Positions 25,858-63,868 of a DNA stretch of 64,000 nucleotides are shown here, piece by piece; the stretch's first letter is position 1; the number at the start of each line of letters is the position of its first letter. The notes beneath the pieces are model-generated. The model was not told where the DNA came from, did no database searches, and worked only from the letters and a program-made list of their open reading frames with translations. The position numbers and the translations under genes were made by a program. This DNA comes from a virus. Location of the stretch: UHGV virus genome UHGV-0039337. One strand, written 5' to 3'.

Positions 25858-26253
25858 TTATTCCTTTCTATATTCTTTACATTCTTGATTATTATATTCT
25901 AATATTTCTCTTAATATTGATCTATGACATATAATATCATTTTTTTCATAACAGATAAGGAATATAGTATATCCTTCATTATTTAAATCTATTATTTCTT
26001 TTAATCCATCAATGAAAAATGGATTGTCAAATGACTCATCTATATATTTTTGTCTATACTCTTTCCAATCAATACTACCATCTTTATACTTGGCTAATGT
26101 AAGTTCCGTGGGCGCAAGTTGAGGCGCCCACTCTATATTATATTTTTTTACGTTTATAGTATTTCTAGGTTTCCATCTAGTTATTAAAAATTTCTTAGTT
26201 GTATCATCATTTGGTAGATTTTTTAAGTTAGACAAATAAGTTGTGTATATCAT
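25858..26253 (-). CDS. DUF488-family protein
   Basis: LITRWKPRN...WAPQLAPTELTLAKYKDGSIDWKEYRQKY...IFLICYEKNDIICHRSILREIL matches the DUF488 pattern (W.P.LaPS..L...y..g.i.W.eF...Y..e ... C.E......CHR). Confidence 0.5.
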   Translation of the reverse strand: MIYTTYLSNLKNLPNDDTTKKFLITRWKPRNTINVKKYNIEWAPQLAPTELTLAKYKDGSIDWKEYRQKYIDESFDNPFFIDGLKEIIDLNNEGYTIFLICYEKNDIICHRSILREILEYNNQECKEYRKE

Positions 26254-26549
26254 TAATGACAGCCACCATTACAAACTCCATTACAATCTCTACTACATGT
26301 ATGTGCTTTTGATTCATTTAAGTTATGAGAAAACTTTTCTTTTCTTGAATCATACTTTTCTTGCATCATACTTCCAGTAGAACCATAACCATCTGCACCT
26401 CTTGTAGTTTCATCTAATTCATCTACTATAAAAGGTTGTGCTTCAAGTACTGGACATAATACTAATTGCGCAATTTTAGCATATTTCTTTAATACAAATG
26501 GTTCTGTTCCTATATTTTCTAGTTCAATACCTATTTCTCCTCTATATTT
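26253..26549 (-). CDS. dut: dUTPase exon 2 (motifs III C-terminal half, IV and V)
   Basis: Begins KYRGEIGIELENIG, then ...AQLVLCP, then TRGADGYGSTG (motif V). The TTG used by the ORF caller is in fact the last codon of the intron, ending in omega-G. Confidence 0.7.
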   Translation of the reverse strand, partial: KYRGEIGIELENIGTEPFVLKKYAKIAQLVLCPVLEAQPFIVDELDETTRGADGYGSTGSMMQEKYDSRKEKFSHNLNESKAHTCSRDCNGVCNGGCH

Positions 26550-27401
26550 CAATTTGTTATGTATAGGCTCTTTATCCTATACTCTCCTACTTTCGTAGAA
26601 GTATCGGACTATATCATTAACTCTCATATAGAGAGCAGAGCGGGGCGCTCGTGTCGGTTTTATTGTTTACCTTACTCAACCGTTAGTCTCTGAACCTTCC
26701 GTATACTTTATAGGCTTCTACGGCTTGGCTGCTGATTAGCATATCTTTCGACTTAGCCTTCCAGCAATTCACCCCGTTTAAAGACTCCAAATTTATTTTG
26801 CTTTATTATATTTTCCTAAAATGTCATGTAATTTGGAATGCTTTGATCTTGATAATATAATTAAATTAGTAGGATCATTATTTATTTTATTTTCATCTAT
26901 ATGATGTACATCATAATTTGGATTTAAATACCATTTGCCATCTATTAATACTGCACAAGATTCAGTAAGTAAATACTGTTCTGCAATTAGCCTATGCTCT
27001 CTAATTCTTCCGAATTTATTTGCAAAAGGATGATCGGGAACATAAACATATATGTAATCATTATACAGTATTTTATTTTGAGTAAAACTAGCATTCAATG
27101 GACCTTTTAATCCATATTGATGATTTCCTTCTCCTTTCATATAATTACTTTTATTGATAATATTACACTCTTCTGAACAAGTTATCATATCTGGATGTTT
27201 TAGTCTTTTAAGTCTTGAAGGTTTAACATAAAATTTTGTGCCGCATATACAACATGAAACATTTGGTTTTTTATTCCATTTATTATACATGTCAGCACAC
27301 GCATGACTACAAACATTTTTTCTATGCTTTTTTATATTATCTGTTTCGTATTCTTCATTACAATAATCGCAATGTCTTAACAATTAAGCGACATCTCCCT
27401 T
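26550..27401 (-). mobile_element. Group I intron (852 nt) in dut with an HNH homing endonuclease gene
   Basis: Splits dUTPase motif III (GTIDS | KYRGEI). Exon 1 ends in U and the intron ends in G. The GC-rich 3' core contains canonical R (GGUUCAGAGACUAAC) and S (AAUGAUAUAGUCCGA) elements forming P7, GACUA paired with UAGUC. Confidence 0.7.
26793..27383 (-). CDS. Intron-encoded HNH homing endonuclease
   Basis: Carries DVHHIDENKINNDPTNLIILSRSKHSKLH (HNH) plus N-terminal Cys-rich zinc fingers. It is in frame with dut exon 1, separated only by TAA, and the ORF caller used a TTG start. Confidence 0.6.
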   Translation of the reverse strand: MLRHCDYCNEEYETDNIKKHRKNVCSHACADMYNKWNKKPNVSCCICGTKFYVKPSRLKRLKHPDMITCSEECNIINKSNYMKGEGNHQYGLKGPLNASFTQNKILYNDYIYVYVPDHPFANKFGRIREHRLIAEQYLLTESCAVLIDGKWYLNPNYDVHHIDENKINNDPTNLIILSRSKHSKLHDILGKYNKAK

Positions 27402-49702: not shown

Positions 49703-51595
49703 TTAATTACATTTACTGTATCCACAATTTACACAACTAATACATCCTTCAGTTTTTAATAGTGTTTTTTCTTCACATTCAGGGCATGTCATGTAATAAT
49801 CATTTGTTTCTTTAGCTGTTTCTGTTTTTTTAGTTTCTAATGGTTTAGACTTTTCTTTTTGTTGTATTGTTTTAATTTCTATTTCAGTATCATCATCAAA
49901 ATCTATAAATTCTTCCATGAATTGATTATGAGCATTTACTAATGCATAAGCTACTGCTGATGCACATGATGAACCTTTAGAAGTTGTTTTGTCTTTATAT
50001 TTAGAAATACTATATGATGGACATACTAAAGCTGATTCTAATTGATCTGCTATTTCTTCTACTGGTGCTCCTTTTCTTGCACATAGACTAGTAAGTCTAG
50101 ATACTGCATTTAATAAAGATAAACAACCACCTTTGCTTCCTTTATCTAAGAACACTTCACGTAATTCTCCAGTTTCAGGACAGAAATAGAAAGTACAATG
50201 CAAACTTCCACATCCAGTTTTAAGTTTTCTCTTAATACCGATTACGGAATCATCAACTAATATAGTATCTCCAAATTTAAGCATAGATTTAGCTTTTTCT
50301 ATTGGAGTTAGATTCGACTCTTTTTCTTCTTTTTCATTACTTACTGTAAGAATACCTGCTCTTTCACAGTTATTTCTATATATAGTTAATCCTTTAACTC
50401 CTTTTTCGGCACCATATAAATAAATTTCTTTTATTTGTTGTGGCGTAACATCTTCTGATAAATTGACTGTAGATGAAATCGATGCGTCTATATATTTTTG
50501 AATAGTAGCTTGTACATCTACTCTATTAAATGGATCTAATTGGTGTGTTGATATAAAGTATTCAGGTAAATCATTAGTATTACCTGTAACTTTTCTATAG
50601 TCTTCAACTATTTTAGCTTCTACTGTATAGTAAACATCTTCATCATGTAAGCTTTCAGTTTTTCTAGTATAACTATAAGCAAAATTAGGTTCTACTCCAT
50701 ATGAAGTATTAAGTAATCCAGCTACAGTTCCAGTAGGTGCTATTGTAGTTAATTGGCTATTAAATAGTCCATTTTGTAGCGCAGCTTTTAGTGTATTTGT
50801 TTCGTAATAATTTAGATTTCCAACTAAATTTTGTATTATATCTGATTTAAATGTTTTGTCTGCATCATAATTTTTAAATGGTGTGTTGCCTTCTATTTTT
50901 GCATAATCAGCACTAGCTATTATACTATTATATAATAAGGCAGTACCTATTGTTTCTATCACTAATAATGATTCTGACGAACCATAAGTTATTCCTAATT
51001 TTATTAAAGTATCTGCCAATCCCATTATTCCAAGTCCTATTTGTCTTAAATCGCCTACGGTTTTACGTTGTTCTTCTAATGGATGTAAAGGCATACCTTC
51101 TATTAATACATCATTTAATGCAAATATAGCTTTATGAATTACTTTTTTAAATTCATCGTAATCAAATCTAGCGTTTGGTGTAAATGGATCAATTATAAAC
51201 TCACTTAAATTAATAGCACCAAGCAAACATGAACCTCCTGCAGGAAGAGGTTCTTCAGCACATGGATTCACACCTACATAATTAAAATCATCATAATATT
51301 GCATTAAGTTATAATTTTGTATTTTATCCCAATAAAGAATTCCTGGTTCTGCCATTCTCCAATTGTTTAATGCTAGTTTATCCATGATTTTATTAGCGTC
51401 GATTAATTTTACTATAGTATTTCCATCTTCTAATTTAAATGTACAAGGATAACTCTCTTTATTTTTAACAGCTTCAATAAAATTACTATTTATCATAACT
51501 GAAATATTTGCTTTAGTTATGGCATTTAAATCTGTTTTTATATCTATAAATTCTTCAATGTCTGGGTGGCTTACATCCATGGATATCATGAGTGC
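49703..51595 (-). CDS. Ribonucleotide reductase large subunit (class I/II fold, probably NrdJ-like), exon 2
   Basis: Begins ALMISMDVSHPDIEEFI. It carries the catalytic NPCAEEPLPAGGSCLLGAINLS and a C-terminal CPECEEK...CISCVNCGYSKC zinc ribbon. No small-subunit gene is present in the window. Confidence 0.75.
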   Translation of the reverse strand, partial: ALMISMDVSHPDIEEFIDIKTDLNAITKANISVMINSNFIEAVKNKESYPCTFKLEDGNTIVKLIDANKIMDKLALNNWRMAEPGILYWDKIQNYNLMQYYDDFNYVGVNPCAEEPLPAGGSCLLGAINLSEFIIDPFTPNARFDYDEFKKVIHKAIFALNDVLIEGMPLHPLEEQRKTVGDLRQIGLGIMGLADTLIKLGITYGSSESLLVIETIGTALLYNSIIASADYAKIEGNTPFKNYDADKTFKSDIIQNLVGNLNYYETNTLKAALQNGLFNSQLTTIAPTGTVAGLLNTSYGVEPNFAYSYTRKTESLHDEDVYYTVEAKIVEDYRKVTGNTNDLPEYFISTHQLDPFNRVDVQATIQKYIDASISSTVNLSEDVTPQQIKEIYLYGAEKGVKGLTIYRNNCERAGILTVSNEKEEKESNLTPIEKAKSMLKFGDTILVDDSVIGIKRKLKTGCGSLHCTFYFCPETGELREVFLDKGSKGGCLSLLNAVSRLTSLCARKGAPVEEIADQLESALVCPSYSISKYKDKTTSKGSSCASAVAYALVNAHNQFMEEFIDFDDDTEIEIKTIQQKEKSKPLETKKTETAKETNDYYMTCPECEEKTLLKTEGCISCVNCGYSKCN

Positions 51596-52537
51596 CGATT
51601 GTACCGTTTCTTTCGAAATACTTTAACATCGTTTTATACGATCGGTCTAGACTATATCTTCAACTCATATTCTTTTACCGAATATGAGTTGCTTGGTACT
51701 TCCGGTCAGGATTTTCACCTAATTACCCGTACTCTACTCGGTTATTCTCTTAGATATTTCTTCTAAGATATCCTTTCGATAGTCGTTTGACTTTATTTTA
51801 TATTATATAGCTTCATAAGTTATTATATAGTTTTTTAATTTTCCTCTACTTGGCATAGGTTTTTTACCCTCTGCATATAATCCTAAAACCGTTATATTTC
51901 CCGCTGAATATCCAAAGTATCTTGCTAATTCTGATAGTGATACGAATTCTTTAATAAAGTTTCCTTCTCTATCATAAAGGTATACATGCTTATTGCAAGT
52001 ACAACAATCATCACCGTATGCTTGCTGTGTGTTTTCGGATATTGTGCCCCATTTTAGGTTTGTATAATGATTATTTAATTTATTGTTATCTAAATGTAAT
52101 ACTATAGGGTAATCATTTGGATTTTCTAAATAAGTCATAGCGACTAATCTATGCACCCTAAAATGTCTTCTTATTCCATCTTTACATACTAACAATAAAT
52201 CTTCATAACCATCTTTCATTATTCTTGTCGATAAAAACCTTTTTAATATTTTTGAATATATTTGCCCATCTTCGGTTATACTATAATAATCTTGTTTTAT
52301 ATTGAAGCAATCCAAATCTTTTATAAAAATCATCTCCTAATAATTTTTATAAGAAATGGCATAATATAAAATCTTAGCACAGGATTAGCATACCTATATG
52401 GCTTTAGCCTCCCCTGTTAGCACACTCATTAATAACCATTTCCTGTTATTACTAATATACGCTGAGTGTACACCCTAGTTTTTAGGTTCACCAAGTTTTT
52501 CATTATATATCACTATATAAAGGCGGCCGATATTTTA
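51596..52537 (-). mobile_element. Group I intron (942 nt) in the ribonucleotide reductase gene, with an HNH_3-type homing endonuclease
   Basis: Splits ...IGQKGRRG | ALMISMDVSHPDI (conserved RRGA.M...HPDI). Exon 1 ends in U and the intron ends in G. The core has R (GUCAAACGACUAUCG) and S (AAGAUAUAGUCUAGACC) elements. Confidence 0.7.
51803..52333 (-). CDS. Intron-encoded HNH_3-family homing endonuclease
   Basis: VLHLDNNKLNNHYTNLKWGTISEN is an HNH_3 motif. Confidence 0.6.
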   Translation of the reverse strand: MIFIKDLDCFNIKQDYYSITEDGQIYSKILKRFLSTRIMKDGYEDLLLVCKDGIRRHFRVHRLVAMTYLENPNDYPIVLHLDNNKLNNHYTNLKWGTISENTQQAYGDDCCTCNKHVYLYDREGNFIKEFVSLSELARYFGYSAGNITVLGLYAEGKKPMPSRGKLKNYIITYEAI

Positions 52538-52984
52538 ACCGCGTCTACCTTTTTGACCTATAAGTCCTGTTGTCATAGAATATAAATCCATAAAAGATAC
52601 TGCTCCTGATGTGGTTTTGGCTGCATTATGTACTGTAGCTTTATTTGGTCTAAGTTTTGATATATCAATTCCCACACCTCCACCATAGGAGAAAGTTCTA
52701 GCTAATTTTTTTGCCGTATCAAATATACTTTCTAAATTATCTTCAGGTGGTTCTAAAACATAACAATTAGAATAAGTTACTTTTGTTCCATTTTTTTGTA
52801 ATCCTCTATTAGCAAGTATTCTGCCTCCATATATAAATTTTTTATCAAGTATTAATTGCTGTACTTCTTTATCCCCGTTAGTTACTCTTTCTAAAAATTC
52901 ATCAAATGTTTCATTATTATATCTGTATTTTCTTTCATATTCACTTACAGATAGTTTTGATGTTAGCCATTCTTTTATATCCAA
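52538..52984 (-). CDS. Ribonucleotide reductase large subunit exon 1
   Basis: NCYVLEPPEDNLESIF...SYGGGVGIDISKLRP...SGAVSFMDLY...IGQKGRRG is the RNR N-terminal core. Confidence 0.7.
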
Positions 52985-60356: not shown

Positions 60357-60755
60357 CTATAATATCGTATAATCTTCTTCAGACATTATATATTGTCTTT
60401 TTTCTGTATTCATTACTTTGCTATTCATACACATAGAAACTATTTTATTAGCTTCTTCTGCGTCTTCAATTGTTATTTTAATTAGTGTTCTATGTTCTGG
60501 ATTCATAGTTGAATCCCATAAACCTTCTGCTGATAATTCACCTAATCCTTTTAAATAAGTTATATTTAATTTTTTATTAGGATATTGTTGTTTAATAGAA
60601 TTTAATTCAGCATCATCTATAGCATATAACGTAGTATTTTTATCTACTATAATCTTATATAATGGTGGGCATGATAAATATAAATAACCTTCTTCTATTA
60701 TAGGTCTAAAATATCTATAAAATAATGTTATATACAAAGTAGCTATATGATAACC
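60357..60755 (-). CDS. Type II topoisomerase subunit B (GyrB/ParE-like), exon 3 (C-terminal)
   Basis: Begins GYHIATLYITLFYRYF and carries GYLYLSCPPLYKI (the GyrB PPLYK motif). Confidence 0.7.
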   Translation of the reverse strand, partial: GYHIATLYITLFYRYFRPIIEEGYLYLSCPPLYKIIVDKNTTLYAIDDAELNSIKQQYPNKKLNITYLKGLGELSAEGLWDSTMNPEHRTLIKITIEDAEEANKIVSMCMNSKVMNTEKRQYIMSEEDYTIL

Positions 60756-62013
60756 CGATTACACCCTCGGTTTCCCGATATTTATCAGGGGTCTAGACTA
60801 TACCTTCGCCATTTCAGGCGCACTGAACGTAGTCGTTGGACTCCTCCTGTTCGGAGTCGGCTGCTGATTTTCCATTAATTCACCCTTAGCACGTATTTAA
60901 TAATACGCTTTTGTCTCAGCTTAGGTAATCCTCAATACTTTTTTCTGCTTTCGCAACATTCATATAAGTTTGTTTCATCTTATATTGTAGTGATTAAGGC
61001 TTTAGGAATTCCCAGCAAGCGGTCAGTGTAATAATCCTATAGGTTATTATTCCCTATAAGACGACTATATTTATAAATTAATTATATTTTAAATAGAGAT
61101 TTAAATAACGTTCAAATTTGCGTTCCATATATATAGTACAATCTAAATATAACCAACTCATTATTTGATATACTTGATTATCACCACATAATCTTAAACT
61201 TTGAACGTTTCCGTCTCCGTTTTTATGTCTTTTTTGTAATTTTACATTCTCTTTATTTAAAATTGTTTTAAGCGTTTCTAAAAATTCTGTAGTACCTAAT
61301 ATACTAATATCATAAGTATGATATTTTTTATCTCCTGATATTGACAGAGATCCATCTCCATCAAAATATCCTCTAATAAAATGTCTTTGTAATTCTTTTG
61401 GTACTATATCCTCTGAAGGAAATAAACAATGATTGGTTTTATCAAGGCTAAAACCTTTATTAACTAAATCTTGATACATCTTTTTGCTAGTTATAACCAT
61501 TTTTGACTCTCTTGTAATACAATCAAAACTTTTATTGTAATGTTCATAATCTCTTATTGGATACGTAGAGTCTATATCTTTTTTAAATTTTTCTATCATA
61601 TTACGATCTTTTGTGGCTAACGTTAATCCTATTTCATTCCCTCTATTTGTTATATATCCATCAGCCATTAAAAAACCCAACCAATAAGCTTTATGTTCTG
61701 TATCAATAACTTCAAAGTAATTATCATTTACTTTATTTCTTCTTAAATCATCAGGACTTTTCTTTTGATATAGTCCTGCTTTAATTAAAACTGGATAAAT
61801 AGTTTGAGGTTTTCTATCTTTTAACGATTCTTTATTCTCACAAATCCATTTTACGCTATGTCCCTCTTTATATTTATTGCATATCCATTTTTTATCTTCT
61901 TCAGAAAATGATTTTCTTATTCTTTTTGTCAATATATTCACCCCAATATTTAGTTTCTTTATCTAAATATTACGGTGAACGTAGACGCTTATAATAATTA
62001 TTTATAAATCTTA
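60756..62013 (-). mobile_element. Group I intron (1258 nt) in gyrB-like, with a LAGLIDADG homing endonuclease
   Basis: Splits DADVD | GYHIATL (GyrB Toprim DADVDG.HI.tLLLTFF). Exon ends in U and the intron ends in G. The core has R (GUCCAACGACUAC) and S (AGGUAUAGUCUAGACC) elements. Confidence 0.7.
61078..61941 (-). CDS. Intron-encoded double-motif LAGLIDADG homing endonuclease
   Basis: KAYWLGFLMADGYI and RHFIRGYFDGDGSL. Confidence 0.7.
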   Translation of the reverse strand: MNILTKRIRKSFSEEDKKWICNKYKEGHSVKWICENKESLKDRKPQTIYPVLIKAGLYQKKSPDDLRRNKVNDNYFEVIDTEHKAYWLGFLMADGYITNRGNEIGLTLATKDRNMIEKFKKDIDSTYPIRDYEHYNKSFDCITRESKMVITSKKMYQDLVNKGFSLDKTNHCLFPSEDIVPKELQRHFIRGYFDGDGSLSISGDKKYHTYDISILGTTEFLETLKTILNKENVKLQKRHKNGDGNVQSLRLCGDNQVYQIMSWLYLDCTIYMERKFERYLNLYLKYN

Positions 62014-63202
62014 ATCAACATCGGCATCGCTCATTATTATTATCTTATGATATCGTAAGTTATCTATATTAAAATCTTCACCTATACCACACTCTAAACT
62101 ATATAATATATCTTTTAATTTATCAGATGATAATACTTTATCTAAAGTCATTTCTTCTACATTTGGTATTTTCCCGAATACAGGTAATATTGCTTGAGTA
62201 TTCTTGTCACATGCGGTAGTTGCTGTAGAAGCTGCACTATCACCTTCAACTAAAAATATTTCGCAAGCTTCAGGATCTTTACTAGCACATTTTACTAATT
62301 TTTCAACTTTTTTATTAGCGAAATTTTTATTCTTTCTTGCAGCTTCTTTTGCTTTATAGGCGGCTTCTCTGATCTTGTTTGATTCAATAACTTTATTAAG
62401 TATATTATCTTTATCATTCGGTAGTTTATCAAATTGATCTTCACAAAACTCCTTTACTTCACTATACAATATGCTTGCTATTACAGGCATATTTAAATAA
62501 TCTTTTCCTTGTCCTATATAGTTAGGATCTGGTACCTTGACACTAACTACTGCTATTATACCTTCACGTGTGTCTTCTGCTGTTAATTGTGTTTTAGATT
62601 TAGGATATTCATTTTCAAAGCAATCTTTAACAGCTGTAGCTATACCACGTTTAAATCCTGTTATATTAGAAGATTTACCATCGGTATTTATAACATTATT
62701 AGTAAACGCTATTATATTATCACTATAAGCCTGAGTCCAAGCAAAAGCTACAGATATTTCACACGATTTATCATTATCCATTTCAACTGATTTAGTTAAG
62801 AACCAAGGATCATGAATACTTTCTTTGTTAGCTGTAAGTTCTTCAACATATGCTTTAACACCCTCTGGATAATTATAGATTTCATGTATGTTATAGTCCC
62901 CATATTCTATATCTACTTTAATAGTAAGTTCAGGATTAAGATAGCATATTTGTTTCATTCTGCTATTAATAGCTGGTATATTAAAATCATCTTTATCAGC
63001 CCATATTTCAGGATCTGGTTCACATTGTATAAGAGTCATAGTAAAGTCTTCACGTGATATTTCTTCTACTTCGTGTAATTTATGAGTCACTAATCCTTGT
63101 TCAAATTCCATATCATATACTTTACCACCAGTATATATTTCAACATGGAACCATTTAGATAAGAAGTTTATACATGATGCTCCTACGCCATTTACAATAG
63201 TT
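62014..63202 (-). CDS. GyrB/ParE-like subunit B, exon 2 (transducer and Toprim)
   Basis: The in-frame extension upstream of the called Met gives TIVNGVGASCINFLSKWFHVEIYTGGKVYD (GyrB HGVGvSvVNALS region). Further on are FLVEGDSAAST and IMSDADVD (Toprim). Confidence 0.65.
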
Positions 63203-63868
63203 CACATAGGTTCGCTATTCCTATGCCGCACTATTACGTGCAGCCTCTAGTTTTCACTAGGGATCGGACTATATCATCACCCTTTAATAAGGGGTTCTCC
63301 ATTTCCATTTAATAGGTAATTAAGAGCCTTATTACGGCTCACCTAACCGCTTGGCTGTACTCTACTCACTTCTGTTACTATCAGAATCGCTTTCGATAGT
63401 CTCTGAACTTTCATTTATTCCATTTAAATAACCAAATTCTTGTTCTTTTTCTCTTCTAAAATCAATACACATCTGTTTAGCTTGTTCATAACCATATTTT
63501 TTACACGATCTTGATATTCTACATTTTTTATGTTCATTATCTTTTATTTCTGCAATCCAAGAATCTCTACTTTTATCATATCTTACACCTTTTATTCCGC
63601 TTGTGTTACATTCTCTTAATGATGTATTTTTTAAATTTTCGTGTCTTGTTGTTATTCTTAAATTGTTTTTACGATTATCCAGACCGTTATGATTTAAATG
63701 ATCTACAACAATGTCGTAACCTTCTACGTCTAATATTAATCTGTGCAAATATATTGGTTATATAAAATAAATGTTTAGCTGCTGATTGCCATATGCTTAT
63801 GCACTTAGGTTTCCAGCAATTAAAAGAATTTTTCGATACACATTACTGCGTAAAGGGACTAAATAGTT
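63203..63868 (-). mobile_element. Group I intron (about 666 nt) in the gyrB-like ATPase-domain region, with an HNH-AP2 homing endonuclease
   Basis: The core has R (GUUCAGAGACUAUCG) and S (GAUAUAGUCCGAUCC) elements. It separates ...FEEGVKSAGL from (T)IVNGVGAS. The exact junction is ambiguous because AACUAUU occurs at both boundaries. Confidence 0.55.
63362..63748 (-). CDS. Intron-encoded HNH endonuclease with an AP2-like DNA-binding domain
   Basis: VDHLNHNGLDNRKNNLRITTRHEN is the HNH motif, and GIKGVRYDKSRDSWIAEI is AP2-like. Confidence 0.6.
   Translation of the reverse strand: MHRLILDVEGYDIVVDHLNHNGLDNRKNNLRITTRHENLKNTSLRECNTSGIKGVRYDKSRDSWIAEIKDNEHKKCRISRSCKKYGYEQAKQMCIDFRREKEQEFGYLNGINESSETIESDSDSNRSE

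Follow-up and report, generated by a model that had tools for sequence, protein, structure and literature searches.

In the stretch of DNA analysed here, a window of 64,000 nucleotides (64 kb) from UHGV virus genome UHGV-0039337, the gene nrdJ, whose product is assigned to the class II (adenosylcobalamin-dependent) ribonucleotide reductases (RNRs), is interrupted by an insert of 942 nt. The evidence supports the insert as a group I intron, predicted to splice, with an HNH_3 endonuclease open reading frame (ORF) in its central loop, and we consider it highly probable that it is a mobile element of the SPO1 DNA-polymerase intron family, IA2-like and seated in phase 0 of a phage nrdJ. This reading rests on features that were observed directly, namely the anatomy of the insert, covariation among its relatives, alleles with an empty insertion site and a co-conversion-like tract around the junction; catalysis, nicking and homing are what we infer from them. 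All coordinates for nrdJ and its intron refer to the minus strand of the window.

The interrupted nrdJ gene

Exon 1 (52984-52538) comprises 149 codons from a TTG start to ...GLIGQKGRRG, the last of them GGU, and exon 2 (51595-49703) comprises 630 codons plus the stop. The Pfam RNR barrel profile, Ribonuc_red_lgC, is covered by exon 1 from position 1 to position 76, where it breaks off, and is picked up again at position 79 by exon 2, which carries it to position 523 and adds the TSCPD domain. Directly 3′ of exon 1 stands an in-frame UAA stop (52537-52535), which forms the first bases of the intron. Exon 2 opens at 51595 with ALMISMDVSHPDIEEFI, where GCA CUC AUG encode A-L-M; the ORF called there has 628 codons from an ATG at 51589, its reading frame is open for two codons further 5′, and direct inspection of the sequence 5′ of this ATG found no Shine-Dalgarno sequence. 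When joined, the exons encode a 779-aa NrdJ that gives a single match to NCBIfam NrdJ_Z (TIGR02504), which spans residues 34-561 and scores 440.6 bits (cut-off 399.95), and whose best PDB relative is the NrdJ of T. maritima (1xje, E 2.8e-57), with an alignment that is continuous over ...RRGALM..HPDIEEFID. By its sequence matches, the interrupted gene is thus a class II RNR gene, and the intron falls between codons 149 and 150 (RRG/ALM) in phase 0.

A protein search returned two uninterrupted 779-aa proteins (P0001 and P0002) that are identical to the joined product, the exon 1 protein corresponding to residues 1-149 of P0001 at 100% identity. The contigs that encode them, L001 and L002, are 96-98% identical to the window in their DNA, and in both the equivalent of window position 52538 abuts that of 51595 without an insert. 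Because these intron-less alleles fix it, the splice junction is exact. The predicted exon-exon junction of the window allele reads ...AGACGCGGU/GCACUCAUG..., the intron-less site reads AGACGTGGA/GCTTTGATG, and the L001 allele reads ...GGTAGACGTGGA/GCTTTGATGATATCC... at the same place. An earlier note on this DNA, made from the sequence alone, had drawn the same boundaries, with exon 1 at 52984-52538 ending ...GLIGQKGRRG and exon 2 beginning two codons 5′ of the called Met, and these agree both with our re-reading of the sequence and with the join in L001 and L002. The RRGA.M....HPDI segment that it rebuilt lies within the continuous alignment to 1xje, the U and the G that it placed at the ends of exon 1 and of the intron are those of GGU at 52538 and of position 51596, and the alignment to RNR families that it proposed as a check places the product in NrdJ (TIGR02504, 1xje); the product itself is one residue longer than the 778 aa that it had given.

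Both exons are intact and in frame, and 34 of the 35 differences between the window and the intron-less L001 allele are synonymous, indicating that the gene is under purifying selection. A megablast search of the locus against 50,697 phage records returned only a 336-nt, 73% match to a Clostridioides phage RNR gene and no close sequenced relative. Near-identical or identical loci were found on metagenome contigs of 111-278 kb, among them one whose name refers to a Hadza/Nepal gut study, and this points to a large, uncultured phage of low G+C content (28.6%) as the source.

Intron architecture and covariation

The intron (52537-51596) begins with UAA and ends ...ACAAUCG, its terminal G at 51596. 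P1 (52542-52523) pairs the exon end GCGGU (52542-52538) with the internal guide GCCGC (52527-52523) over 5/5 bp, with a U.G pair at the splice site, and the guide covaries with the exon end in introns B, C, G, H, I and J of our comparison as well, B and C being the introns of sister alleles described below and H that of phage phi3T. The P2 hairpin (52520-52503; UUAUAUA-GUGA-UAUAUAA, 7/7 bp) has another sequence yet is still paired in B, C, H and J. The 5′ strand of P3, CUUGGU (52495-52490), finds its partner ACCAAG far downstream at 51697-51692, forming the P3/P7 pseudoknot. Between P3 and J3/4 lies a block of two hairpins (52486-52420), hp1 (52486-52474) and hp2 (52471-52420), the latter with the apical loop AGGAAAUG (52444-52437). 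This block is found in SPO1 and SP82G and is lacking in the Twort orf142 introns I1-I3; a literature search found no published name for hairpins between P3 and P4. The hp2 loop is constant in the window and nine relatives (B, G, J, K, SPO1, Goe26, Perkons, Enterocloster and EFP01), and a constant loop above a covarying stem suggests a candidate tertiary contact.

The segment 52419-52379 holds J3/4 (UAA), P4 (ACAGGG/UCCUGU) and, within P4, P5 (GGC-UAAA-GCC) with an extension. The 5′ strand of P6a, AUUUUAUAUUAU (52372-52361), pairs over 12/12 bp with its 3′ strand, AUAAUAUAAAAU (51806-51795), which overlaps the ORF stop codon, so that P6a closes the loop holding the ORF; at this site seven other family introns have unrelated sequences that are still fully paired, over 8-14 bp. 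The R element, GUCAAACGACUAUCG (51791-51777), contains the 5′ strand of P7 (GACUAU, 51784-51779) and has a core, AACGACUAU, that is the same in Twort I2 and SPO1. P7.1 (51767-51749; CUUAGA/UCUAAG) is followed by the conserved motif GAGUAGAGUAC (51739-51729), which is shared with SPO1, Moonbeam, CS01 and L012 with the elements in the same order, by P7.2 (51722-51706; UUAGG/CCUGA) and by a GGAAGU linker that runs to 51698 and leads into the 3′ strand of P3. The P8 hairpin (51690-51662; AACUCAUAUUC-GGUAAAA-GAAUAUGAGUU, 11/11 bp) precedes the S element, AAGAUAUAGUCUAGACC (51660-51644), which supplies the 3′ strand of P7 (AUAGUC, 51655-51650). The intron closes with a three-way junction at P9 (51646-51596), made up of P9 (ACC/GGU), P9.1 (51643-51627), P9.2 (UUUC-GAAA-GAAA, 51618-51607) and the tail ACAAUCG; introns B, C, G and that of SPO1 likewise end in AAUCG. 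An alternative fold in which hp2 would be P4-P5 and an AGGGG...CCUGU helix would be P6 was rejected, since Twort I2 is collinear over the frame AAUCCUGUGCUAAG-[P6a]-AAAGU(G)C-AACGACUA. The P4-P6 assignment in Twort I2 reportedly rests on a crystal structure.

All helices were present in canonical order in 8/8 of the introns compared. P3, taken as the bases between the conserved AAAA and GAA paired with those following GAAG(U/C), forms 6/6 bp in each of the eight, and strands combined across different introns form 6/6 bp in only 1 of 56 cases. Counted in the alignment, P3 is 100% paired with compensatory changes in 4/6 pairs, P4 is 100% paired with two such pairs, the hp2 outer stem is 100% paired with compensatory change in 7/9 pairs, and P7 (GACUAU/AUAGUC, 6/6 bp) is 94% paired, the phi3T intron showing a compensatory U-A to C-G replacement. 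Over the whole of alignment A1, 92.4% of cells are paired; shuffling the columns lowers this figure to 74%, and sliding the partner strand by 1-3 columns lowers it to 31-41%. A compensatory change is seen in 26 pairs, and on no measure did any of 500 shuffles reach what was observed. Thus P3, P4, P7 and P8 as predicted find support in the compensatory changes among the eight related introns. For a covariance model (R1) of the 5′ domain, comprising P3, hp1, hp2, P4 and P5, nine relatives were used, among them the SPO1 intron but not the window sequence; searched against the whole window, this model gave a sole significant match, full length (1-126), at 52498-52372 with 108.8 bits (E ~1e-24). 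The 3′ half of the intron also has a better folding energy than its shuffles (z = -3.45).

Family membership

When phage genomes were searched by BLAST with the intron minus its ORF, relatives turned up in numerous phages of Gram-positive hosts, each lying between two pieces of one gene: yonO in phi3T (L018, 2464 to ~2881), nrdD in Clostridium phage CS01 (L025), Enterococcus phage EFP01 (L024) and Fusobacterium phage phiKSUM (L019), the DNA polymerase gene in Moonbeam (L023) and Goe26 (polA, L020), and a polA on an IMG/VR contig. The deposited genomes that hold these introns annotate only split coding sequences or a 'hypothetical protein'. The 5′ domain block also occurs inside gene 31 of Bacillus phage SPO1 and of SP82G, and SPO1 gene 31 is annotated 'contains intron', which we take to be the self-splicing intron described by Goodrich-Blair et al., 1990, a work cited in PMC3984707. 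The likeness to SPO1 extends from P3, GAA, hp1, GU[hp2 with its AGGAAAUG loop]GC, UAA(C) and P4 through the GAGUAGAGUAC motif and P7.2, GAAG(C) and the 3′ strand of P3 to the S element GAAGAUAUAGUCUAG and the 3′ end AAUCG. The differences lie in the host gene, which is the DNA polymerase gene in SPO1 and SP82 (gene 31, with I-HmuI and I-HmuII) and nrdJ here, in the endonucleases, which are 38% identical (SPO1 gp31.2), and in the position of the ORF, which is in the P8 loop in SPO1 and in the P6a loop here. On this comparison of sequence and predicted fold, the intron belongs to the same family as the SPO1 DNA-polymerase intron.

Subgroup IA2 is recognized by P7.1 and P7.2 between P7 and the 3′ strand of P3. 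The hairpins at 51767-51749 and 51722-51706 occupy this interval, and their order with GAGUAGAGUAC is as in SPO1 by hand alignment. The orf142 introns I1-I3 of Staphylococcus phage Twort, likewise group I introns from a phage of a Gram-positive host, resemble the window intron in their R and S elements, in the frame GCUAAG-P6a-AAAGUGC-AACGACUA and in P7.1/P7.2, but in them P3 passes directly to J3/4 (UAAA/UAAUU) and P4, without hp1 and hp2.

The endonuclease reading frame

The ORF (52333-51803) encodes 176 aa and leaves non-coding flanks of 204 nt on its 5′ side and 207 nt on its 3′ side within the intron. Pfam identifies HNH_3 (27.0 bits, cut-off 24.8) and NUMOD1 (35.5 bits, cut-off 22.8). 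The product is full length by comparison with I-HmuI (174 aa) and aligns with it (PDB 1u3e, E 9.3e-12) at H, D, N, K, N, N, T, N, L and W, including the catalytic His and Asn residues; it also matches the HNH endonuclease group PHROG 59 (E 1e-31) and shares 38% identity with SPO1 gp31.2 and 36-44% with the ORF products of introns B and C. It is, by homology, an I-HmuI-type HNH nickase with a NUMOD1 DNA-binding module, for which nicking is predicted. In the minimum-free-energy fold of the 5′ half of the intron, the AGGAG that precedes the ORF is paired with UUCUU (52354-52350), and such pairing could, if the modelled fold forms, limit expression of the endonuclease.

Alternative introns in sister alleles

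The same 942-nt insert (intron A), 100% identical, is present in L007-L010, which come from four other metagenome samples, as metagenome or sequencing-run assemblies, and include contigs of up to 278 kb. The samples with this allele are ERZ28576023, ERZ27287489, ERR7738433 and ERR5263469. The sister contigs L003-L006 have two other inserts in the same nrdJ, up to two of them together, and are without the intron after codon 149. Intron B follows codon 54 (867 nt; L003, 1598-2464) with the exon end GGAGGU and the guide GCUUCC, intron C follows codon 102 (805 nt; L003, 2609-3413) with GGUGGU and GCCACC, and each has an HNH ORF of its own. Like intron A, both follow an exonic GGU, end in AAUCG and have a guide that pairs with the exon end via U.G. 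B and C have I-HmuI-like ORFs whose products are 204 aa, going by the called start, and 166 aa long; for the longer ORF that start falls inside the ribozyme, and a GUG after AAAGGAGG looks like the true one.

Intron-bearing and intron-free alleles differ at only 22-35 of 2340 nt, and the differences are placed unevenly. At each of the three nrdJ sites, the exon ends in U in intron-bearing alleles alone, GGA or GGC being replaced by GGU. Compared with the four alleles that lack the codon-149 intron (L001-L004), the window allele has five private synonymous changes around the junction, at -3, 0, +3, +4 and +6 (P ~2e-7), and 13 of its 14 private differences fall between -81 and +327; against L003, 14 of 22 mismatches fall within 409 nt (P ~2e-6). 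We read this diverged tract of roughly 400 nt as a trace of putative homing with co-conversion from a diverged donor. The changes at the junction would also serve P1 pairing, and they possibly shield the allele from its own predicted nickase.

These alleles also suggest a broader picture in which co-circulating strains of one human-gut phage of roughly 270 kb use nrdJ as a landing pad for three paralogous SPO1-type introns, each equipped with an I-HmuI-like nickase and accompanied by private synonymous changes where it is inserted, the tract reflecting recent homing or marker exclusion in the gut. We advance this tentatively, rating it a little short of an even chance. If true, it would represent intron-endonuclease competition in a natural population, a process for which studies to date have used laboratory crosses between SPO1 and SP82. 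To us the most interesting side result is that intron insertion at three nrdJ sites is polymorphic, with co-conversion signatures, in this uncultured ~270-kb gut phage, and the presence and absence alleles at three sites, together with the co-conversion-like tract, provide a natural data set on homing in uncultured gut phages.

Proposed mechanism and alternatives

According to the favoured mechanism, nrdJ would be transcribed together with its intron into a single pre-mRNA, on which a ribosome would halt at the UAA that opens the intron. The RNA would fold in the order P1-P2-P3-[hp1-hp2]-P4-P5-P6-P6a(ORF loop)-P7-P7.1-P7.2-P3′-P8-P7′-P9, an external guanosine would attack 3′ of the U in the U.G pair of P1, and the freed exon 1 would then attack after the terminal G (51596), joining GGU to GCA and restoring the 779-aa NrdJ. 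From the ORF in the P6a loop, an I-HmuI-like HNH nickase would be made that cuts intron-less alleles of co-infecting phages, and repair off the intron-bearing copy would carry over the intron along with flanking exon sequence a few hundred bases long.

Several observations weigh against this reading. At the gathering threshold, the Rfam run over the whole window gave no Intron_gpI match, and in a 1.3-kb search RF00028 reached only 25.9 bits (E 3.4e-4, mostly from P8 and S), compared with a gathering score of 50. The folding energy of the 5′ half alone is not better than that of its shuffles (z = -0.98), inspection revealed no convincing P10 that would pair GCACUC of exon 2 with bases lying 5′ of the guide, and P5, P7.1, P7.2 and P9 were placed by hand alignment of few sequences rather than by a formal count. 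The spliced and unspliced junction strings, made with the private variants of the window allele, were both missing from the IMG/VR and JGI metagenomes; since the unspliced string was missing too, the phage is not in those collections, and the search is uninformative on splicing. Finally, the Shine-Dalgarno sequence of the ORF, AGGAG (within 52341-52333), abuts the AUG with zero spacer, which makes the translation start and its efficiency uncertain. The low Rfam score we read as a blind spot of the model for the SPO1-type subfamily and not as evidence against membership. RF00028 also misses the ORF-less relatives in phi3T and phiKSUM, yet gives the Twort introns, which have no hp1 and hp2, 64-101 bits, and on these grounds the two hairpins, together with the 531-nt ORF in P6a, probably account for the low score. 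The central claim of the earlier note, that a group I intron carrying an HNH_3 ORF interrupts the gene for an RNR large subunit, is borne out by the empty-site alleles, the covariation, the R1 match and the Pfam domains, and so are its placement of R before S on the minus strand and of the ORF in the middle with about 200 nt on each side, an ORF in the P6a loop being a known arrangement (PMC2248736). Its word 'canonical' fits the order of the core helices but neither the Rfam score nor the two-hairpin block that the Twort introns lack, and the covariance-model check that it proposed came out below the gathering score with Intron_gpI and positive with the custom R1 model.

Under a different reading, an endonuclease gene would have split nrdJ, the flanks would no longer splice, and the two polypeptides would assemble. 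This has a documented precedent in nrdA/mobE of Aeromonas phage Aeh1, cited in PMC3653736 as a split RNR that functions without an intron, and it would be in keeping with the subthreshold Rfam score. However, the ~410 nt of non-coding flank retain every core helix, with compensatory changes; the ATG at 51589 has no ribosome-binding site, and a start there would lose the conserved A-L of RRGALM; and the U at the exon end, which is confined to intron-bearing alleles at all three sites, answers a need of splicing and not of the protein. We therefore regard independently translated halves as very improbable. It is harder to argue against an intron that splices but has become immobile, with an inactive or unexpressed ORF, vertical inheritance and junction changes selected for P1 pairing. 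The Shine-Dalgarno sequence does abut the AUG of the ORF, defunct intron endonucleases do exist (T4 I-TevIII is so termed by the title of PMC2790892), and the changes at -3 and 0 do strengthen P1. Yet the ORF is full length with its catalytic His and Asn aligned, the private differences reach +327 in exon 2, far past P1 or P10, no pairing role was found for the changes at +3, +4 and +6, and presence or absence of the intron varies among alleles that are otherwise nearly identical, so that we consider an immobile intron unlikely. That nrdJ might be a decaying, dispensable pseudogene colonised by selfish elements could be suspected from the up to two introns at once in the sister contigs and from the decaying RNR genes of Campylobacter phages noted in PMC3653736; with intact, in-frame exons, almost exclusively synonymous differences and a joined protein above the NrdJ equivalog cut-off, it is scarcely credible. 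An intein is ruled out by the UAA directly after exon 1 and the separate endonuclease ORF ~200 nt further on, and a group II intron reading was also rejected.

Comparison with known systems

An HNH-bearing group I intron in a phage DNA-metabolism gene is a well-known kind of selfish element, known since the 1980s-1990s. The introns in td, nrdB and nrdD (sunY) of T4 differ in having a Gram-negative host and encoding the GIY-YIG enzyme I-TevI, I-TevII or the defunct I-TevIII. I-TevI is located in the P6 region of the T4 td intron. Group I introns in phage and bacterial RNR genes are well documented (Twort nrdE, T4 nrdB/nrdD, SPbeta bnrdE/F and B. cereus nrdE/F; PMC2248736, PMC2504315, PMC3984707 and PMC3653736), and RNR is described in the last of these as the nucleotide-metabolism gene most often interrupted by them. 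Twort nrdE, which has introns of which one encodes the HNH nickase I-TwoI, is alike in that it specifies an RNR large subunit and has an HNH-encoding group I intron beside conserved residues (PMC3653736), but its RNR is of class Ib rather than class II. In the nrdE and nrdF genes of the B. cereus group there are, similarly, several alternative group I intron sites per RNR operon that vary among close strains (PMC2248736, PMC2504315), and in the B. thuringiensis nrdF intron the ORF begins in the P6a loop (Nord and Sjoberg, PMC2248736); these genes, however, are chromosomal and of class Ib, and their introns fall into subclasses IA1, IA2, IA3 and IB4 with GIY-YIG or other endonucleases. Aeh1 nrdA/mobE also has an RNR large-subunit gene broken by an HNH-family endonuclease gene, but according to PMC3653736 it has no intron and two separately translated pieces, whereas here a complete predicted ribozyme flanks the ORF. 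PMC3653736 lists only two split nrdJ genes for 128 phage genomes, and it describes one of them, that of Thermus phage phiYS40, as divided by a 12-nt gap with no intron. A phage nrdJ may therefore be a host gene newly recorded for group I introns.

In annotation, the two nrdJ ORFs should be joined as one 779-aa NrdJ, and the same joining applies to the records of phi3T yonO, of CS01, EFP01 and phiKSUM nrdD and of the Moonbeam and Goe26 DNA polymerases. Because the Rfam group I model misses the SPO1-type subfamily, intron-rich phage genomes such as the present one are under-annotated.

Other apparently interrupted genes

Besides the nrdJ intron, the replication module of the window has at least one other group I intron (Rfam, 80.8 bits), with two more being probable. 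The former appears to split the dUTPase gene (26253-27383, minus strand), with an HNH ORF (26793-27383) upstream and a C-terminal dUTPase piece at 26253-26552. Rfam Intron_gpI scored 80.8 bits at 26584-26830 in a 1.6-kb local search, whereas the whole-window run at the gathering threshold listed nothing there, so that its fast filters lost a match well above threshold.

A gyrase-B-like gene (60357-63748, minus strand) lies in at least three pieces, with one further piece expected upstream. The pieces include 62011-63111, which covers GyrB and the start of Toprim, and 60357-60737, the GyrB C-terminus, and the gaps contain a LAGLIDADG ORF (61078-61941) and an HNH-AP2 ORF (63362-63748), all on the minus strand. 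An Rfam search of these gaps gave no match. The gap before 60755 ends ...GGGUGUAAUCG, as does the nrdJ intron, and the exon resumes with GYHIATL in the Toprim DxDxDG-HI motif. On the IMG/VR contig, an RNA match to RAGATH-18 (56.6 bits, gathering score 44.9) lies downstream of polA (L012, 2812-2900).

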